A stretch of DNA of 64,000 nucleotides from Campylobacterales bacterium (GTDB lineage Bacteria > Campylobacterota > Campylobacteria > Campylobacterales > QNZT01). The stretch spans positions 19,101-83,100 of the forward strand of contig JAJRSK010000064.1 in assembly GCA_024278835.1 (NCBI GenBank). Direction: 5' to 3'. The notes below the pieces were generated by a model that saw nothing but the letters and a program-made list of their open reading frames with translations, had not been told where the DNA came from and made no database searches. Position numbers and translations under genes: made by a program. This document shows, in pieces, positions 2,194 through 22,574 of the stretch (within the stretch, counting starts at the first letter, position 1; each line of letters begins with the position of its first letter).

Positions 2194-2871
2194 ATGAAAA
2201 GAGTACTTATCACAGGTGGCAACAAAGGTATAGGCTTAGCATTGACTAAAATGTTTGTAGATTTAGAGTATGAAGTCGTTGTTATCGCGCGTGATTTTGC
2301 AGGATTTGTCTATGCGGAGAAAGTCACCTGTATCGAGTATGATTTAACAGATGTAGCAAATATCCCAAAACTTATCTCTTCTATTGGTCAAGTGGATATT
2401 CTTATCAATAATGCAGGGGTGATGTACTCCTTGCCTTTTGATAGTTACCCATCCGAAAAAGTGCAAACTATACTCAACCTCAACCTCGAAGCACCGATAA
2501 AACTGATAGAAGAGTGTTGCAAACTTGGTACAACGCGTGTGGTGAACAATGCTTCTATCGCTGGTGAGATAGGACATCCAGATATCTGGTATGGTGTGAC
2601 AAAAGCAGGAATCATCAATGCCACAAAAAGTTTTTCTAAGGTATTTCAAGGAAAGGTTATTATCAATGCTATAGCAGCAAGTCCTGTGGAGACAGATATG
2701 TTAGAGACGATACCATTAGAGAGAAGAGAAGCATTTTTAAAGACAGTCATCTCCGGGCGTTTTGCCACAGCTGAAGAAGTTGCAAAAACGATGCTTTGGT
2801 TAGCCACAGAATCACCCGAATATATCAATGGCACGACGATAGATATCAATAATGGCTCATATCCTAGATAA
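2194..2871 (+). CDS. SDR family NAD(P)-dependent oxidoreductase
   Basis: TGGNKGIG glycine-rich dinucleotide motif, NNAG motif and Y-x3-K (YGVTK) catalytic motif. Confidence 0.85.
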   Translation: MKRVLITGGNKGIGLALTKMFVDLEYEVVVIARDFAGFVYAEKVTCIEYDLTDVANIPKLISSIGQVDILINNAGVMYSLPFDSYPSEKVQTILNLNLEAPIKLIEECCKLGTTRVVNNASIAGEIGHPDIWYGVTKAGIINATKSFSKVFQGKVIINAIAASPVETDMLETIPLERREAFLKTVISGRFATAEEVAKTMLWLATESPEYINGTTIDINNGSYPR

Positions 2872-9917: not shown

Positions 9918-10908
9918 ATCGTTTTTAATACTTATCTATATGGTTGCGGGGCTTAGTATCGCCCTGTTTACGGCGGTGATGACTTATATCATCATCGATG
10001 AACCTATCGGGATGAAGATGCTCTCTAAAATAGCGCTTACGATAGTGGCGACGTTGCCTATCATCGGCTTATTTAGTTACTATATCGGGTTGTATCTTTC
10101 CAAAAAGTTTGACTATATAGCCACTAGGCTTGATGCCATCCATGAAAATAAATTTGTCAAAGACACCCATCATGATAAGATAGTAGATATCACAAAAATC
10201 CACCACTCTATCGATGATCTCTCCTCTCGTCTGCAAAAAAGTATAGCGGCACTTCAAAGTAATAATACGAACCTAAGTTCTATCATCAAGTCACTCTCTC
10301 ATGATATAAAAACACCACTTACTATCATAGATGGATACTTAGAAGAGTGTGAAGATGGTATCGTTACAAACGAGCAGATGCCACAAGTCATCCAAATCCT
10401 CAAAAAAGAGACAACTTACCTCAATGAACTAAGCTCTGAAGCCATCAGTTATATCCAGTCACAGGAACTAAGAGGGGAAAAAGAGACGATACATTTAAAA
10501 GAGTTTTTACATGCTGAGGTTTGTCCACTTTTACGGGTTGAAGAAGGGGTAGAGCTAAAGTGTGAAATCGATGAAAAAGATACGGTGGAGTTTACGCCTA
10601 TCGCCCTTAAAAAGATACTAATAAATCTTTTACACAATGCTAGTAAATATACAAAAAAAGGGAGTATCACTACAAAAGTTGAAAATGGAACTATCATGAT
10701 AGAAGATACAGGGATAGGCATTGATGCTAAAGATAAAGCACGGATATTTGAGCCATTTATTTCCTTAGATGAGAGTAAAAACAGAGAAAATAATGGTTTT
10801 GGTTTAGGCTTGTCTATCGCCAGAAATTTAGCACAAAACAATGATTATGACCTCTTGTTTGATGAGGGGCATAAAGATGGTGCTAGGTTTATATTGAAAA
10901 AACTATAA
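9907..10908 (+). CDS. sensor histidine kinase
   Basis: Two N-terminal TM helices, an H-box (SHDIKTPLT), an N-box (LLHNASKYT), and G1/G2 boxes (EDTGIGI, GFGLGLSIA). It overlaps the response regulator gene by 11 nt. Confidence 0.9.
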   Translation: MKIKSFLILIYMVAGLSIALFTAVMTYIIIDEPIGMKMLSKIALTIVATLPIIGLFSYYIGLYLSKKFDYIATRLDAIHENKFVKDTHHDKIVDITKIHHSIDDLSSRLQKSIAALQSNNTNLSSIIKSLSHDIKTPLTIIDGYLEECEDGIVTNEQMPQVIQILKKETTYLNELSSEAISYIQSQELRGEKETIHLKEFLHAEVCPLLRVEEGVELKCEIDEKDTVEFTPIALKKILINLLHNASKYTKKGSITTKVENGTIMIEDTGIGIDAKDKARIFEPFISLDESKNRENNGFGLGLSIARNLAQNNDYDLLFDEGHKDGARFILKKL

Positions 10909-16944: not shown

Positions 16945-18348
16945 ATGAAAAATATGGAGATTGAGCGTAAATTTTTAGTCGATAAAAAGCTGTTAACTTA
17001 TCTTAAAAGTGCGTCCGTACCCTATCAAAAAAAATCACTAAAACAGTACTATACCAAGATAAGTGCCCAAGAGACTAGACGCTTTAGAAAGTCAGATAAA
17101 CGCTATTTTCTTACCATCAAGTCTGGACGTGGGCATAAAAGAGTTGAGAAAGAAAAAGAGATTTCAAAGAAAGTTTTTAAGGCCAATCTCCCTTTGATAA
17201 AAGGCTTTTTAGTAGAGAAAAAACGCTATGTATTTAGGCTCAATGGTATATTGTATGAGTTTGATATCTTTGTGTCACCTATCGATAACTTGGCACTTTT
17301 GGAGATAGAGTTTGAGAGTGAAAAGGCTTATCAAGATTATAAAGTAGCTAAGGCACTAAAGCCCTATATCATCAAGTACGTGAGTGATGATTTTAGGTAT
17401 ACCAATGCTTCTATCGCACTTTTTACATTACCAAAAAAGAGTAAAAAAGTAGAAAAAATAAAGCCTCATTTTAAGAGTGTGGATGCGATAAGCACTATTT
17501 TGCATCAGAACTTACAAAATATCAAGATGTACAAAGAGAAGATACTAAAAACTTATGATGATGAAGATTTACATCAGTTTCGTGTCAACATACGAAAGTC
17601 CCGCGCTATTTTAGGGATGATGGGCGCTGTGTTTGCGACTGAACATCTATCCTATCATGATAAGCAACTCTCCTCCATCGCAAAACTCACCAACAAAAAG
17701 AGAGATTTGGATGTCTTTATCGCGGCATTTGAGGAGTATTTTTCAGATGAGATACATGATGAACTTCGGTATTTCTATCATGATATATCTAGGCAGAGAG
17801 AAGTCGAAGAGGAACATGTCAAAAAGTTTTTACAAGAAGAGGCATTGACAAGTTACCTGAAAGCGTTAGAATCATTTTTAACAGATGAACAAGCCCATGG
17901 CAAGATGGCAAAGGAGCCTATCGCCCTTTTTTTAGAAGAGCGTGTAGCATTCATACTGCAACATATCGTGAAAAAAATTAAAAGATATGAAGGTGAGAGA
18001 AAAGAAGAACACCTGCATAAAGTGAGGATTAGTTTTAAGAAGCTACGTTATATCTTGGAGAGTTTTGAGTCTCTTTTTTATAAGAAAAATGTCAAAGCTT
18101 TGCTCAAGCGTGTTAAAAAACTACAAAATGATTTAGGACTTTTCAATGACTTGTGTATGCAGCATCAATTTTTAGAAAACTACCTCAAAGAACACCGGCT
18201 TGAGAGAAGCAAAGAGTCCGCTTTTGAGAATCTTTTAAGCAAGATAGAGAGAGATAAAGTGTCAATGCAAGAAAATATAGAAAAAGACCTTAACACGACT
18301 ATGGATATAGACGCGTTAAGAGAAGGTGTCAAAGTAAGATTTGTCTAA
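16945..18348 (+). CDS. CYTH plus CHAD domain protein (triphosphate tunnel metalloenzyme fused to a CHAD domain)
   Basis: The N-terminal EIERKFLV is the CYTH ExExK signature. The C-terminal roughly 280 aa are helical and His/Arg/Lys-rich, consistent with CHAD. Confidence 0.7.
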   Translation: MKNMEIERKFLVDKKLLTYLKSASVPYQKKSLKQYYTKISAQETRRFRKSDKRYFLTIKSGRGHKRVEKEKEISKKVFKANLPLIKGFLVEKKRYVFRLNGILYEFDIFVSPIDNLALLEIEFESEKAYQDYKVAKALKPYIIKYVSDDFRYTNASIALFTLPKKSKKVEKIKPHFKSVDAISTILHQNLQNIKMYKEKILKTYDDEDLHQFRVNIRKSRAILGMMGAVFATEHLSYHDKQLSSIAKLTNKKRDLDVFIAAFEEYFSDEIHDELRYFYHDISRQREVEEEHVKKFLQEEALTSYLKALESFLTDEQAHGKMAKEPIALFLEERVAFILQHIVKKIKRYEGERKEEHLHKVRISFKKLRYILESFESLFYKKNVKALLKRVKKLQNDLGLFNDLCMQHQFLENYLKEHRLERSKESAFENLLSKIERDKVSMQENIEKDLNTTMDIDALREGVKVRFV

Positions 18349-18827
18349 AAAACAAATCCCATGCTCACTTGAGGATAGCCATCATCGCTACTCTCATCGC
18401 CTTTGGTGCGGTGCTCTTGTACCCAGCCGATAGTCATATAGGTGTTGCTTCCCATAGTCATCGCGATACCGATACGCCCAGCGATGACATCATAATCCTC
18501 ATAAGGCTCTTCGATAAAAGTATGACTATAAGTCGCTCCGATATAAGGATGATACTGTGCATTTAGGGGATGATAGTATGTAACAGGTATGCTGATTTGG
18601 TTGATTTTTGGATCGCCGCCAAACCATCCTTGATAGCCTACACCCATTGAGATATTGTTTTGTACAAAGTAGTTGATACTTGCATTGACTACTGTGTAGT
18701 CTGTACCATATCCAGAGCTAGAGCCTATACCAAAACCGAAGTTTTTCTGCCCTTGTGAAAAGAGTCCAGAAATGCCCTCTGCATTGAGTGAGCCTATCAT
18801 GATAGCGGTCAATAATAGTTTTTTCAT
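18345..18827 (-). CDS. small outer-membrane beta-barrel protein
   Basis: Signal peptide MKKLLLTAIMIGSLNA, Gly/Tyr-rich alternating strands and a C-terminal ...MGFVF. Confidence 0.55.
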   Translation of the reverse strand: MKKLLLTAIMIGSLNAEGISGLFSQGQKNFGFGIGSSSGYGTDYTVVNASINYFVQNNISMGVGYQGWFGGDPKINQISIPVTYYHPLNAQYHPYIGATYSHTFIEEPYEDYDVIAGRIGIAMTMGSNTYMTIGWVQEHRTKGDESSDDGYPQVSMGFVF

Positions 18828-18842
18828 AATGTATCCTTTAAA

Positions 18843-20183
18843 CTATTGTATCATCCACGCCTTAAACTTCTTGCCTTTTATCTTTTCATTTTTTAGTAAG
18901 TCAAGTGCGCGTTTTGCCACACCTTTCTCTACGGCGACATAAGTATAAAAAGGAAAACTATCAATCTTCCCGATGGCTGCAGCCTCTATCGTTTTCTTTG
19001 CTGTGAGTGCCCCGAGGATATCCCCTGCGCGAAGTTTGTTCTTTTTGCCACCATGGATGCAGATAGTTTTCATCTTGGAAGCTATCATGATAGAGGTATC
19101 AACATCCAAGTCTCGTACAGCAATCGAAGTGGTATTTGCTATCTTTTGGTGGGTCAATGAGAGGGCTTTTCCACTCTTTCCTGCCCGTCCTGTTCGTCCG
19201 ATACGATGGGTGTAAGTCTCATCATTTCTAGGCAAGTCATAGTTTACGACGATATCCACATCAGGGATATCTAATCCTCTAGCTGCAACATCAGTAGCTA
19301 CCAAAATAGCACAAGATTTATTGGCAAATTGCAAAAGTGTCTCATCCCTATCCACTTGCTCTAAATCTCCATGCAGTCCCAACGCCGAAAACCCAGCCGC
19401 TTGTAAATCCGCCGCCACATCATCCACATCTAACTTCATGTTACAAAAGACGATAGCAGAAGCGGGGTTGTGGTACTGAAGCACCTTGATAAAACTCTCA
19501 AACTTATAGCCCTTCTCTACTTCATAATAAATCTCTTCTATGTTGGAGCTATCATGATAGGTATCGACCTTGACCTCTTGGGCCTCATGGGTAACAGAGT
19601 GACAGAGTGCTTTGATATCGTCTGTGAAGGTTGCTGAAAAGAGCAGTGTTTGACGCTTTTTAGGTGTATCTGCAAGTATCTTGTCTATCTCCTCAGAAAA
19701 CCCCATATCGAGCATTCTATCCGCTTCATCAAGCACGACGGTATGGATATGACGAAGCTCAAGTGTGGACTTTGAGAGGTGATCACGAATCCGCCCAGGT
19801 GTGCCTACGACGATATGCGCACCATGTTCTAGTGAGTTGATTTGATGGCGCATCGGTGTACCACCATAGAGGGTAAGTATCTTGATGTTATGTTTGAAAC
19901 GGGCGAGTTTTCGTAGCTCTTTGGCAACTTGTTCTGCTAATTCACGCGTTGGGGCGATGATGAGTGCTTGGGGGTGAAACTTGGAGATATTTATCTTTAG
20001 GAGTAGCCCTATCCCAAACGCTGCTGTTTTACCTGAACCCGTCTTGGCTTGGGCGATGATATCTTTTCCCTCTAGGATAAAAGGAAGGGCTTTTTCTTGG
20101 ATGGCGGTCATATCATGATAGCCGAGTTGTTCTAGGTTGGATAGCATCTCATCAGGGAGTGGAAGTGTGTTAAATGGGGGCAT
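18843..20183 (-). CDS. dbpA: DEAD-box ATP-dependent RNA helicase, DbpA-like
   Basis: Q-motif, AQAKTGSGKTAAF, PTRELA, DEAD (VLDEADRM), SAT and HRIGRTGRAG motifs. The C-terminal DbpA-type RNA-binding domain carries IHGGKKNKLRAGDILGAL. Confidence 0.85.
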   Translation of the reverse strand: MPPFNTLPLPDEMLSNLEQLGYHDMTAIQEKALPFILEGKDIIAQAKTGSGKTAAFGIGLLLKINISKFHPQALIIAPTRELAEQVAKELRKLARFKHNIKILTLYGGTPMRHQINSLEHGAHIVVGTPGRIRDHLSKSTLELRHIHTVVLDEADRMLDMGFSEEIDKILADTPKKRQTLLFSATFTDDIKALCHSVTHEAQEVKVDTYHDSSNIEEIYYEVEKGYKFESFIKVLQYHNPASAIVFCNMKLDVDDVAADLQAAGFSALGLHGDLEQVDRDETLLQFANKSCAILVATDVAARGLDIPDVDIVVNYDLPRNDETYTHRIGRTGRAGKSGKALSLTHQKIANTTSIAVRDLDVDTSIMIASKMKTICIHGGKKNKLRAGDILGALTAKKTIEAAAIGKIDSFPFYTYVAVEKGVAKRALDLLKNEKIKGKKFKAWMIQ

Positions 20184-20216
20184 GGTGTCTCGCTTTTTGT
20201 TTGCATATTACTCCAG

Positions 20217-20468
20217 CAAGTAAATAGATTAAATTTTGATGCTGTGATTTTACTCATAGACAAGGCAGATTTTCGTAGGACTAGCTGTAGCTAATTCTAA
20301 AAAATCTAACGAAGTTCTATGGGTAAAAGCACGGCACTCTTCGAGGAGAATAAGAAGAGGCAATCTGCAAGTAGACAAATATTTGAATTCCCTACGGGGA
20401 GTCCTTCATATTTGTCTACTCACATCTCACCTCTTCTTATTCTCTCAAAAATTAATCTATTTACTTGA
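20217..20468 (+). ncRNA. candidate structured ncRNA of unidentified family: a closing stem plus two long hairpins
   Basis: A 23-bp closing stem (20217-20239 with 20446-20468, one mismatch). Hairpin A (20242-20261 with 20315-20335) has two U-G wobbles that are valid only on the + strand, and contains an inner hairpin (20267-20307). Hairpin B pairs 20346-20360 with 20430-20444 (15 bp perfect) and 20371-20382 with 20408-20419 (12 bp perfect), and is capped by a C(UACG)G tetraloop at 20392-20397. Confidence 0.45.
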
Positions 20469-20497
20469 TGGGGTAATTAATCATAGCAAAAATTGGT

Positions 20498-20503
20498 TAT
20501 AAT
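20498..20503 (+). promoter_or_regulatory. candidate -10 box (TATAAT) for the methyltransferase/endonuclease operon
   Basis: A perfect TATAAT lies about 110 nt upstream of the ATG at 20614. No other evidence. Confidence 0.25.
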
Positions 20504-20613
20504 CGCGAATATAAAGCAATAGAAAAGTAAAAACATTTCAAAATGAAATAAAATTTTACTTTCAGTTGTCATTTTGTCATAATTCTTTCTATATTAGAAC
20601 ATGAGGAGAGAAG

Positions 20614-21924
20614 ATGACAGCAGCAAATCTTTTTTATAACACAGGAGTGGAAAAATCTTTGAATCAGCAGATGAGTAGTCGGATAAAAACTTTAAAAACT
20701 GTAGAGTTATTTGCAGGTGTGGGTGGATTTCGTATAGGGTTAGAGCGTGCAAGTCAAGGTGAAAAAGGATTTGATATTGCTTGGAGTAATCAGTGGGAAC
20801 CCTCCACAAAAACGCAACATGCTTCTGATATCTATGTCGCACGGTTTGGATTTGAGAATCACTGTAATGAAGATATCGCTAAAGTAAATGCCGAGGATAT
20901 TCCTCATCATGATTTTCTTGTTGGTGGTTTTCCTTGTCAGGATTATTCCGTAGCAAGCACACTGAAAAATTCTCATGGTATAGTCGGTAAAAAGGGGGTG
21001 CTCTGGTGGGAGATTTATCGTATATTGGTCGATAAAAAAGAGCATGCACCAAAGTATCTCTTGCTGGAGAATGTAGATAGACTTTTAAAATCTCCTGCCA
21101 GTCAACGAGGACGGGATTTTGCCATCATACTCTCTTCTTTAAATGCACTTGGTTACGCTGTAGAGTGGCGTGTGATAGATGCAAGTCTGTATGGTATGCC
21201 TCAGCGACGAAAACGGGTATTTATCTTTGCCTACAAAAAAGGGACAAAGCTTTATAAGAAACTTGACAAATCAGAGCCACTAGACGTCTTTAATGCCTAT
21301 TCTCTCTTTGAAAAAACGTTTCCAACAAAAGAAGTGCAAAATGATGCTATCATGATAAAAGAATTGAGTGCTGATTTGGTAGATATCACAGAAAACTTCA
21401 ATAAAAAAACACCTAAACAAAATGCATTTTTAGATGCGGGGTATATGGTGGATGGTGTTTATTATAGCGTGAAGGTAGAAGCAGACTATCAAGGTAAGAG
21501 AGCAACACTAGGTGAGTTTTTACAAGATGAAAAAGAGATACCTAAGGAATTTTTTATCACTCCAGATGAACTAAAAAAATGGCAGTACCAAAAAGGTGCA
21601 AAGTCTATTCAGCGAGTCAATAAAACAACGGGGCATGAGTACACTTACTCAGAAGGAAAGATGGGTTTTCCTGATGCACTAGATAAGCCTTCAAGAACGA
21701 TTATCACTGGTGAGGGTGGGACGAGTGCTTCACGATTTAAGCATGTAGTCTGTGTCAATGGTAAATATCGTCGTCTAACACCAATTGAGTTGGAACGGTT
21801 AAATATGTTTCCTGATAACCATACAGCAGGTGTAACAGATAGCAAAAGAGCATTTTTGATGGGGAACGCTTTGGTTGTAGGGATAGTTGAGAAGTTGGGA
21901 AAGAGGTTATTGGATGAGGTATAA
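20614..21924 (+). CDS. DNA (cytosine-5)-methyltransferase (type II R-M modification subunit)
   Basis: Motif I ELFAGVGGF, motif IV GGFPCQDYS, motif VI ENV, motif VIII QRRKRVFI, motifs IX/X RRLTPIELERLNMFP and GNALVVG. An AGGAGA SD precedes the start. Confidence 0.9.
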   Translation: MTAANLFYNTGVEKSLNQQMSSRIKTLKTVELFAGVGGFRIGLERASQGEKGFDIAWSNQWEPSTKTQHASDIYVARFGFENHCNEDIAKVNAEDIPHHDFLVGGFPCQDYSVASTLKNSHGIVGKKGVLWWEIYRILVDKKEHAPKYLLLENVDRLLKSPASQRGRDFAIILSSLNALGYAVEWRVIDASLYGMPQRRKRVFIFAYKKGTKLYKKLDKSEPLDVFNAYSLFEKTFPTKEVQNDAIMIKELSADLVDITENFNKKTPKQNAFLDAGYMVDGVYYSVKVEADYQGKRATLGEFLQDEKEIPKEFFITPDELKKWQYQKGAKSIQRVNKTTGHEYTYSEGKMGFPDALDKPSRTIITGEGGTSASRFKHVVCVNGKYRRLTPIELERLNMFPDNHTAGVTDSKRAFLMGNALVVGIVEKLGKRLLDEV

Positions 21925-21926
21925 GT

Positions 21927-22574
21927 GTGCAAATAAAAACATTTTCTTATAGATATGCTGAGGAAATTTTAGAACATCCTCACTATCATGATGTGTACAA
22001 TGAGATTTTAGAGGTTTGCAAAGCATGTCCATTGCCTGTGTACAAAGATAAATCTAAGTCACAACCACGCTTGGATATAGTTCAGCAGATTATAAACAGT
22101 TATTTTAAAATCGCTTTTGCAGACAAAGCGTGGGAAGAAGAACCACTTGTGACACCAGATAGTTTAGATGATTCACTTCGGGGAGATTTTCGAAAAAATT
22201 TTTCGAAAAATGGTCATGCCATTACTATTCAAATAGAAGTTGAGATGGGAAACATCGCAAGTTCTTATAGAAACTATTTTAAGTTTCAATTGTCGTATGC
22301 TTATAAGTTAGCAGATATAGCCATATTGATACTTCCTTGTGATAAATTAAGTAAAAGAATAGATAGTGGTGTGGCATCATATGAAAAAACAGTTAGAGAG
22401 ATACCTTCAGCAGATTTGTCGATTACTGTACCTATCTTAGTTATAGGCTTAGATGACGATGGGGTAGAGGAGATAGATATTAAGACTGTAGAAGAAGATT
22501 TAGAAGTTGTTAAAGGGCAAAAAAATAGATATAAAGAGGCTCATATAAAATTAGTGAGAGATTTATTATCATGA
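21927..22574 (+). CDS. type II restriction endonuclease, BamHI/BglII-like fold
   Basis: A GTG start 2 nt after the methyltransferase stop. The segment ITIQIEVEMGNIASSYRNYFKF...ILILPCDKLSKRIDSGVASYEKTV...VPILVIGLD parallels my recollection of the BamHI catalytic and C-terminal region. This is from memory, not from an alignment. Confidence 0.55.
   Translation: MQIKTFSYRYAEEILEHPHYHDVYNEILEVCKACPLPVYKDKSKSQPRLDIVQQIINSYFKIAFADKAWEEEPLVTPDSLDDSLRGDFRKNFSKNGHAITIQIEVEMGNIASSYRNYFKFQLSYAYKLADIAILILPCDKLSKRIDSGVASYEKTVREIPSADLSITVPILVIGLDDDGVEEIDIKTVEEDLEVVKGQKNRYKEAHIKLVRDLLS

Follow-up and report, generated by a model that had tools for sequence, protein, structure and literature searches.

The element at the dbpA locus

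We have analyzed a stretch of 64,000 nucleotides from a Campylobacterales bacterium (assembly GCA_024278835.1, contig JAJRSK010000064.1, positions 19,101 to 83,100 of the forward strand), here called the window, in which a highly structured element lies beside dbpA, the gene of a DEAD-box RNA helicase. The left neighbor of this element is dbpA, and its right neighbors, assigned by Pfam, are the genes of a C5 cytosine methyltransferase and a BglII-like endonuclease, a restriction-modification (R-M) pair. A first-pass annotation had regarded the element as a candidate novel non-coding RNA (ncRNA) on the + strand with its own promoter, and had named a miniature inverted-repeat transposable element (MITE) as the main alternative. 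The coordinates of the features are collected in Table 1.

The unit of the element spans 20208-20476 and comprises 269 bp with no coding capacity. Its terminal arms (20207-20239 and 20445-20477) are 33 nt long and complementary at 30 of 33 positions (91%), and no other match to the terminal-arm sequence was found in the 64-kb window, where the chance expectation is 0. The closing helix of the first-pass annotation was confirmed in its existence but not in its length of 23 bp, as the arms run for 32-33 bp and reach the tips TTAC (20208) and GTAA (20476). The nested hairpins proposed for the interior were borne out by a repeat finder and by a fold far beyond chance, and the C(UACG)G loop described at 20392-20397 is present.

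Homologues of DbpA assign the organism to Campylobacterales. We compared the dbpA region with five relatives (loci L001, L002, L003, L006 and L110), whose DbpA proteins are 85-95% identical. In L001, L002, L003 and L006, the conserved -10 box of dbpA is followed by the ribosome-binding site with no element in between, and the upstream region of dbpA in L110 is likewise without it. The four former loci carry the conserved extended -10-like box TTTTAGCTATGATT, which follows the pattern GCTAT(G/A/C)AT, and the ATG of dbpA comes about 24 nt later, whereas roughly 270 nt are interposed between the -10 box and the dbpA ATG in the window. When 20208-20478, which is the element with one flanking dinucleotide, was removed in silico, the sequence from the -10 box to the ATG aligned with L002 and L006 without gaps, and the 24-nt spacing of these two relatives was restored. 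Moreover, L002 shares the methyltransferase and endonuclease pair with the window yet has no element, indicating that the element is not part of the R-M island. Judged from these comparisons, the element is an insertion between the dbpA promoter and the start codon, and the stable syntenic position expected of an ncRNA gene was not found in any of the five relatives.

Table 1. Positions of the element, its parts and the associated host features in the window and, where a locus is named, at other copies
Feature	Position	Strand	Basis or remark
dbpA, DEAD-box RNA helicase	18843..20183	-	Pfam DEAD, Helicase_C and DbpA domains
Left target dinucleotide copy (TA)	20206..20207	.	Flank comparison, excision test
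Left terminal inverted repeat TTACTCCAGCAAGTAAATAGATTAAATTTTGA	20208..20239	+	Inverted-repeat finder, complementarity to right arm
Hairpin A, 21-bp stem 20240-20260/20316-20336	20240..20336	+	Repeat finder, fold
Nested sub-hairpin inside hairpin A	20261-20315	+	Fold
Hairpin A apical module GGACT-stem-loop-stem-AATTC	20278..20297	-	Inverted copy of hairpin B apical module
Mini-hairpin CTC-TTC-GAG at the four-way junction	20337..20345	+	Fold, RNAalifold consensus; CCC-TTC-GGG in most copies
Hairpin B, 37-nt arms 20346-20382/20408-20444	20346..20444	+	Repeat finder, fold
Hairpin B "internal loop" with 4 A.C mismatches	about 20361-20369/20421-20429	+	Sequence-conserved in the family
Hairpin B apical module GAATT-CCC-TACG-GGG-AGTCC with C(UACG)G loop	20385..20404	+	Sequence
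Right terminal inverted repeat, TTACCCCATCAAGTAAATAGATTAATTTTTGA on the - strand	20445..20476	-	Repeat finder, family alignment
Right target dinucleotide copy, TT (one substitution from TA)	20477..20478	.	Family alignment, excision test
Spurious 49-aa ORF inside the element	20319..20468	+	16 short homologues; query that led to the family
Host dbpA extended -10 box TGCTATGAT	20480..20488	-	Ends 3 nt from the element
Host -10 box, L112	about 10215-10223	-	
Host -10 box, L115	about 10167-10175	-	
Host -10 box, L111	about 2498-2503	+	
Size-variant copy L114a	L114 9867-10161		
Size-variant copy, L111	L111 2516-2737		

Related copies in other Campylobacterota

An open reading frame (ORF) of 49 aa within the element provided access to its relatives. 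With this ORF as the query, phmmer was run exhaustively against 1.84 billion representative proteins and returned 16 short homologues with 50-69% identity over the whole ORF, while a word-indexed protein search with the 49-aa ORF and a 42-aa ORF returned nothing, so that only the exhaustive search recovered the family. The ORF itself was rejected as a coding sequence. Its codon positions hold 20, 23 and 28 variable columns of 49, with no third-position bias, the Sulfurovum riftiae copy has no ATG, and the stops lie outside the element in other copies. On the evidence of the DNA behind them, the matched short proteins are translations of related DNA elements.

The contigs of the protein matches were retrieved and searched with BLAST and nhmmer, and DNA was recovered for six further full copies. 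These come from a metagenome (L111), from Sulfurovum riftiae (L112), from a GC-rich Nitratifractor sp. (L113) and from assembly GCA_027029065.1, in which two copies lie on contig 248 (L114a and L114b) and one on contig 260 (L115, the same as L116). Identities between the window copy and the others range from 69 to 76%, and the family alignment comprises seven copies from five independent lineages. The three copies on the two contigs of GCA_027029065.1 occupy unrelated loci and, over 272 aligned positions, have identities of 100% and 99.6%; beyond the tips, where the similarity ends exactly, their flanks are unrelated. By this comparison, the family is shown to have been recently active in at least one lineage. 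Dispersed near-identical copies with target-site duplications, which the first-pass annotation had named as the sign of a MITE instead of an ncRNA, were thus found in the form of these three copies with TA flanks.

All copies have a common plan. Each of them starts with T(T/C)AC and ends with G(T/C)(A/G)A, terminal inverted repeats are present in 7/7, and TA dinucleotides flank both ends in 5/7, while the window (TA..TT) and L113 (TA..TG) differ from this by one substitution each. Hardly any variation within the family is seen in the two strands of the hairpin B loop, C-R-ATCTG and ACAT-N-TC-R-C. Size variants also occur: L114a has 23 additional nt in the nested stem of hairpin A, and L111 is without the nested sub-hairpin of about 50 nt.

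Taken together, the element is small and non-coding, has terminal inverted repeats and a 2-bp duplication, shows presence/absence polymorphism, and has near-identical dispersed copies. Because of these properties, we consider it quite probable from sequence comparison that the element represents a copy of a non-autonomous transposable element of the MITE type, with 32-bp terminal inverted repeats and a 2-bp TA duplication. The alternative named by the first-pass annotation is therefore supported by the insertion polymorphism, the dispersed copies and the TA flanks.

The family occurs in Sulfurovaceae-like Campylobacterota (Sulfurovum riftiae, Nitratifractor sp. and metagenome bins) and is apparently undescribed, as limited full-text searches of the literature found no description of a MITE family in Sulfurovum or Campylobacterota. 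Searches in other collections were negative. A blastn search of the element against plasmids and phages gave no match, and the family-invariant patterns were not found in viral contigs. Exact scans of viral contigs (16-mer), genome contigs (20-mer) and metagenome contigs with the terminal-repeat core of the window copy, a probe from the middle of the repeat and thus from the least conserved stretch of the family, gave only single matches, which BLAST confirmed to be chance matches.

Several copies have entered protein annotations. The hypothetical protein KYJ86675.1 of Sulfurovum riftiae (L112 10001-10198) is a translated family copy. The DUF434 protein of Nitratifractor (L113 6001-6768) has 255 aa compared with 200 aa in its RefSeq form, the difference being a false N-terminal extension of 55 aa derived from the copy. 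Similarly, a 214-aa FAA_hydrolase call (L114 19433-20077) enters the element with its 5' end and groups with the element-ORF cluster, which suggests a false N-terminal extension. We also observed that L114a sits between an RHH-antitoxin-like gene and a ParE-like gene.

Fold, covariation and strand

The predicted fold of the element is very stable on both strands. As RNA of the + strand, 20217-20468 reached -110.7 kcal/mol compared with -48.3 +/- 4.8 for dinucleotide shuffles (z -12.9; 0/200 shuffles), and its reverse complement reached -114.0 kcal/mol (z -17.5). For the whole element, the minimum free energies as RNA were -122.4 kcal/mol (+) and -122.8 kcal/mol (-), and single-stranded DNA folds had z-scores of -16.4 (+) and -12.8 (-). 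The fold models, together with the RNAalifold consensus of the seven-copy alignment, show that the interior can fold on either strand into a perfectly stacked four-way junction between the terminal helix, hairpin A, a 3-bp mini-hairpin and hairpin B. At this junction the four helices abut, and no copy has unpaired linker nucleotides.

The 20-nt apical module of hairpin B recurs in inverted form at the tip of hairpin A, and the stem of 3-4 bp has been changed between the two modules by compensatory substitutions (AGCT/AGCT versus CCC/GGG). This match has a p of about 0.06 in the window copy alone and is conserved across the family. A global homology between hairpins A and B was considered and found not significant; only the apical modules match locally. 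We also considered the mini-hairpin as a C(UUCG)G tetraloop, which is how it looks in most copies, but the compensatory C>T/G>A pair of the window copy (columns 169/175) favors a 3-bp stem with a 3-nt loop. A guide function of the hairpin B internal loop, of the type known from bridge RNAs, was rejected as well, since the loop is nearly invariant across lineages and the insertion sites, by inspection, share only TA.

Compensatory changes are present in every helix of the consensus. RNAalifold predicted 106 pairs, in which 95.4% of the cells are standard pairs. Changes on both sides were found at 39 of the 106 pairs, compared with 20.2 +/- 2.6 in column shuffles (0/500 reach 39), and registers slid by 1-3 columns gave only 4-8 such pairs. 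In the terminal repeat (helix 1), 17/34 pairs co-vary. Sequence conservation is confined to the tip TTAC and the inner TTTTGA, and the middle has changed from lineage to lineage with both arms of each copy still complementary. The hairpin A stem (helix 2) has 7/20 compensatory pairs, and helices 6 and 7 of hairpin B have 11. In helix 8, at the apex of hairpin B, the TACG loop is invariant and the column pair 221/230 occurs as CG in three copies, AU in three and GC in one; helix 5, the mini-hairpin, has the compensatory pair of the window copy mentioned above. Because compensatory substitutions maintain the helices across the family, hairpin formation appears to be under selection. In a palindrome, covariation is symmetric by construction, so that it shows that the hairpins matter and not in which molecule they form. 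Accordingly, the alignment shows that the structure has been selected, and the acting molecule may be single-stranded DNA or RNA. The covariation check suggested by the first-pass annotation thus gave strong compensatory support, which does not tell RNA from DNA hairpins.

On the question of the strand, the first-pass annotation had held that the wobble pairs and the tetraloop work only when the + strand is transcribed. Our results contradict this, as the - strand folds equally well or better. On the one hand, three mismatches in the terminal repeat and hairpin A are G.U-compatible on the + strand. On the other hand, the "9x9 internal loop" of hairpin B consists of four A.C mismatches and two others, and the A.C mismatches become G.U on the - strand. 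Over the five lineages, the predicted pairs contain 25 G.U cells for the + strand versus 16 A.C cells, which equal G.U on the - strand; 13 of the 25 come from three conserved positions, and without these the counts are 12 (+) versus 16 (-). The UNCG-type loop lies on the + strand in hairpin B and on the - strand in hairpin A, at the tip of which the - strand of the family reads GAATT-NNN-(TACG, TCCG, TTTG or TACA)-NNN-AGTCC. The element shows no strand preference.

The promoter that had been proposed for the + strand, with CATATT at 20204-20209 as the -10 box, is composed of the duplicated TA and the conserved tip of the element, and the consensus promoter scan did not call it. The scan called no promoter inside the element, none directed outward was seen, and by inspection no -10-like motif is conserved in the alignment. 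A terminator scan gave one weak terminator-like match within the element.

Mobility, alternatives and consequences for dbpA

If the element is a MITE, a transposase acting in trans would recognize the conserved tips (TTAC) and the inner repeat ends (TTTTGA) and would integrate the element at TA. We suppose that this enzyme would be a TA-specific DDE transposase of the IS630/Tc1-mariner type. Enzymes of this type mobilize other bacterial MITEs, and such a model has been proposed for RUP, Correia and ERIC-like elements.

Several points weigh against this interpretation. About 1 Mb of loci, as well as plasmids, phages and viral contigs, yielded neither an autonomous element nor a transposase with matching ends, and the gene tables of the six other element-bearing loci list neither a transposase nor a reverse transcriptase. 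The assignment to the IS630 type and the mobilizing enzyme are conclusions drawn from the TA duplication alone. Since TA is palindromic, it could also be read as an extension of the inverted repeat, and the duplication depends on a single empty-site comparison. In the 64-kb window the element is a single copy, and the exact 20-mer scans of genome and metagenome collections gave chance matches only, which means that the family is rare or diverged. Furthermore, textbook MITEs keep their ends while their interior drifts. In this family, conservation of the interior equals that of the ends, and the repeats vary in their middle yet stay complementary there, which is unusual for a MITE; this conservation pattern looks more like that of a structured nucleic acid than that of a protein-binding repeat.

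At the insertion sites of the window, L112 and L115, an extended -10 box of the host (TGCTATGAT, TGCTATTGT or TGCTATACT) that is directed into the element is found 3-11 nt beyond its right end, and L111 has a TATAAT 11 nt beyond the left end. Four of the seven insertions are thus placed essentially at predicted transcription start sites. We estimate roughly that chance would give about 0.05 such boxes per copy, which makes 3/7 an excess, although in a small sample of copies that were found via called ORFs. Three of these copies are oriented antisense to the predicted promoter next to them, and one is oriented sense. This proximity may reflect AT-rich or melted promoter targets, or leaders that tolerate insertions.

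The family may be more than a decayed insertion sequence, in that its mobile unit may be defined by its conserved four-way fold instead of its sequence, either as the substrate of a structure-specific enzyme acting on folded single-stranded DNA or RNA, or as a portable cis-acting module of 5' leaders near start sites (a stabilizer, a processing site or an insulator). The helices that co-vary while the middle of the terminal repeat is not conserved in sequence, the lack of unpaired linkers at the junction of any copy, the single-stranded DNA folds that are as significant as the RNA folds, and the position of three of seven copies 3-11 nt downstream of an extended -10 box (TGCTAT...), with a fourth 11 nt from TATAAT, are all consistent with this. 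We nevertheless consider the two forms together to be unlikely. They rest on five independent lineages with no enzyme, intermediate or transcript observed, the promoter proximity may have the simpler causes given above, and with three antisense copies and one sense copy no single RNA strand would be made consistently. A stand-alone structured ncRNA gene of about 250-270 nt on the + strand, acting in trans from its own promoter, could likewise account for the very stable fold, for the strong covariation and for the lack of a match to any known RNA family. In this last respect, the statement of the first-pass annotation was upheld: Rfam 15 gave 0 matches at the gathering threshold for the window and three homologous loci, and at E <= 10 only chance matches to eukaryotic RNA families were seen, mostly microRNA precursors and far under their thresholds. 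The U.G pairs that are invariant on the + strand (columns 61/153 and 219/232), the invariant C(UACG)G loop of hairpin B and the recurrence of the Nitratifractor copy upstream of the DUF434 gene in several assemblies (P0132 cluster, 6 members) also fit such a gene. We regard it as very unlikely, considering that the orthologous site is empty in five close relatives and that three near-identical copies with TA flanks occupy unrelated loci of one assembly. In addition, the two strands do not differ in folding energy, hairpin A has the UACG module in inverted orientation, and the conserved A.C mismatches of hairpin B equal conserved G.U pairs on the - strand. No promoter was called upstream, any promoter would lie outside the mobile unit, and the helix co-varies out to the tips, which would be absent from an internally initiated RNA. 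The novel + strand ncRNA of the first-pass annotation was therefore abandoned for want of strand asymmetry and of a supported promoter, together with its absence in relatives and the dispersed copies.

Two known types of structured elements were also weighed. The tips that read TTAC and the strong hairpins of single-stranded DNA recall a palindrome-associated element (PATE) of the IS200/IS605 type, which would move as single-stranded DNA by a Y1 HUH transposase inserting 3' of TTAC, as does IS608 of Helicobacter, and elements of the IS605 family are common in Campylobacterota. However, IS200/IS605 elements are without terminal inverted repeats or target duplication, whereas a 32-bp inverted repeat and a supported 2-bp duplication are present here; TTAC lies within the inserted DNA at both ends, and the empty sites do not contain it. 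This origin is highly improbable. Even less credit, close to none, can be given to an orphan retron msr-msd, in which the terminal repeats would serve as the a1/a2 pairing and the internal hairpins as msr and msd. It has a resemblance of layout in its favor, in that a retron also has terminal inverted repeats that enclose hairpins. Against it, the present element is multi-copy and dispersed with TA flanks and a target duplication, and its closing helix of 32 bp is much longer than the roughly 7-13 bp of retrons. As the first-pass annotation had noted, no reverse transcriptase is nearby: a Pfam scan of 28 ORFs located from about 5.9 to 36 kb in the window found ordinary chromosomal genes and no reverse transcriptase, transposase or integrase, and the six other loci have no reverse transcriptase either.

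The MITE-type reading that we prefer is in line with known repeat families, from which the present element differs in several features. Correia/NEMIS elements of Neisseria are likewise small and non-coding, with long terminal inverted repeats and TA duplication; they lie near genes, are co-transcribed and form a long hairpin that can alter the fate of the mRNA. In contrast, Correia elements are 100-155 bp long with a single hairpin, sequence-conserved repeats of 26 bp and hundreds of copies, while the present element has 269 bp, a four-way junction and two independent hairpins of about 100 nt, and no similarity of its sequence to Correia is apparent. ERIC/IRU and YPAL elements of Enterobacteria are also imperfect palindromes that occur across genera and have size variants from internal indels at fixed sites. 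ERIC is transcribed into mRNA in either orientation, but it is 127 bp long, is restricted to Gammaproteobacteria and has a different sequence, and for the present element an effect on mRNA is only a prediction. RUP of Streptococcus pneumoniae is a TA-duplicating MITE moved in trans by the IS630-family transposase of IS630-Spn1, which has matching ends; for the present family no matching autonomous insertion sequence was found, and the mechanism is proposed by analogy. The ncRNAs in Rfam (6S, RNase P, tmRNA, HEARO/omega RNA, raiA, OLE and others) have a similar size range, strong structure and covariation, but unlike these families the present element appears to be mobile and is strand-symmetric.

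The insertion may affect the expression of dbpA. With the usual spacing of 6-8 nt, transcription of dbpA would start in the first few bases of the right repeat of the element. The dbpA mRNA would then carry the minus-strand element as a fully base-paired 5' leader of ~290 nt, which would end ~23 nt before the ATG. Such a paired 5' end could stabilize the dbpA mRNA; alternatively, the leader could expose it to double-strand-specific cleavage, for example by RNase III. Both stabilization and cleavage of mRNAs are documented for the Correia elements of Neisseria and the ERIC elements of enterobacteria. The promoter candidates of the R-M genes (20555-20595, promoter scan) lie beyond the element and should be unaffected.

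As for the surroundings, the slot directly upstream of dbpA is a variable hotspot of defense genes (window 20614-22574; L001 4363-5685; L006 1-5540; L003 5253-6000). It holds the C5-methyltransferase and the BglII-like endonuclease in the window and L002, an AIPR (abortive-infection) gene in L001, and an N6/N4 methyltransferase, a ResIII helicase and a Fic protein in L006, and in L003 it is empty, with a menaquinone-biosynthesis gene (Pfam VitK2_biosynth) as the next neighbor of dbpA. An 18-nt near-perfect palindrome, TTATAATCGCGAATATAA, centered on TCGCGA, was observed at 20497-20514, in the interval that separates the element from the methyltransferase gene. A related sequence with this center, ATCGCGATTATAA, is shared with L002, which has the same R-M pair, and not with L001, L003 or L006; the palindrome may serve as an operator or controller site, or it may mark a boundary of the R-M cassette. 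Directly downstream of dbpA lies a conserved ORF of 160 aa with no Pfam match (18345-18827, - strand), and its position is kept in L001, L002, L006 and L110 (160-168 aa).

In summary, in this study, we replaced a false call of a novel ncRNA and documented a MITE family of deep-sea and sulfidic Campylobacterota that is apparently undescribed and has an unusually elaborate fold supported by covariation. The family explains spurious hypothetical proteins and false N-terminal extensions in the annotations of Sulfurovum and Nitratifractor, and it tends to land directly downstream of the -10 boxes of its hosts. At the dbpA locus, a double-stranded structure of ~270 nt would stand at the 5' end of the mRNA of an RNA helicase, and this would offer a natural test of its effects on expression in organisms without RNase E.

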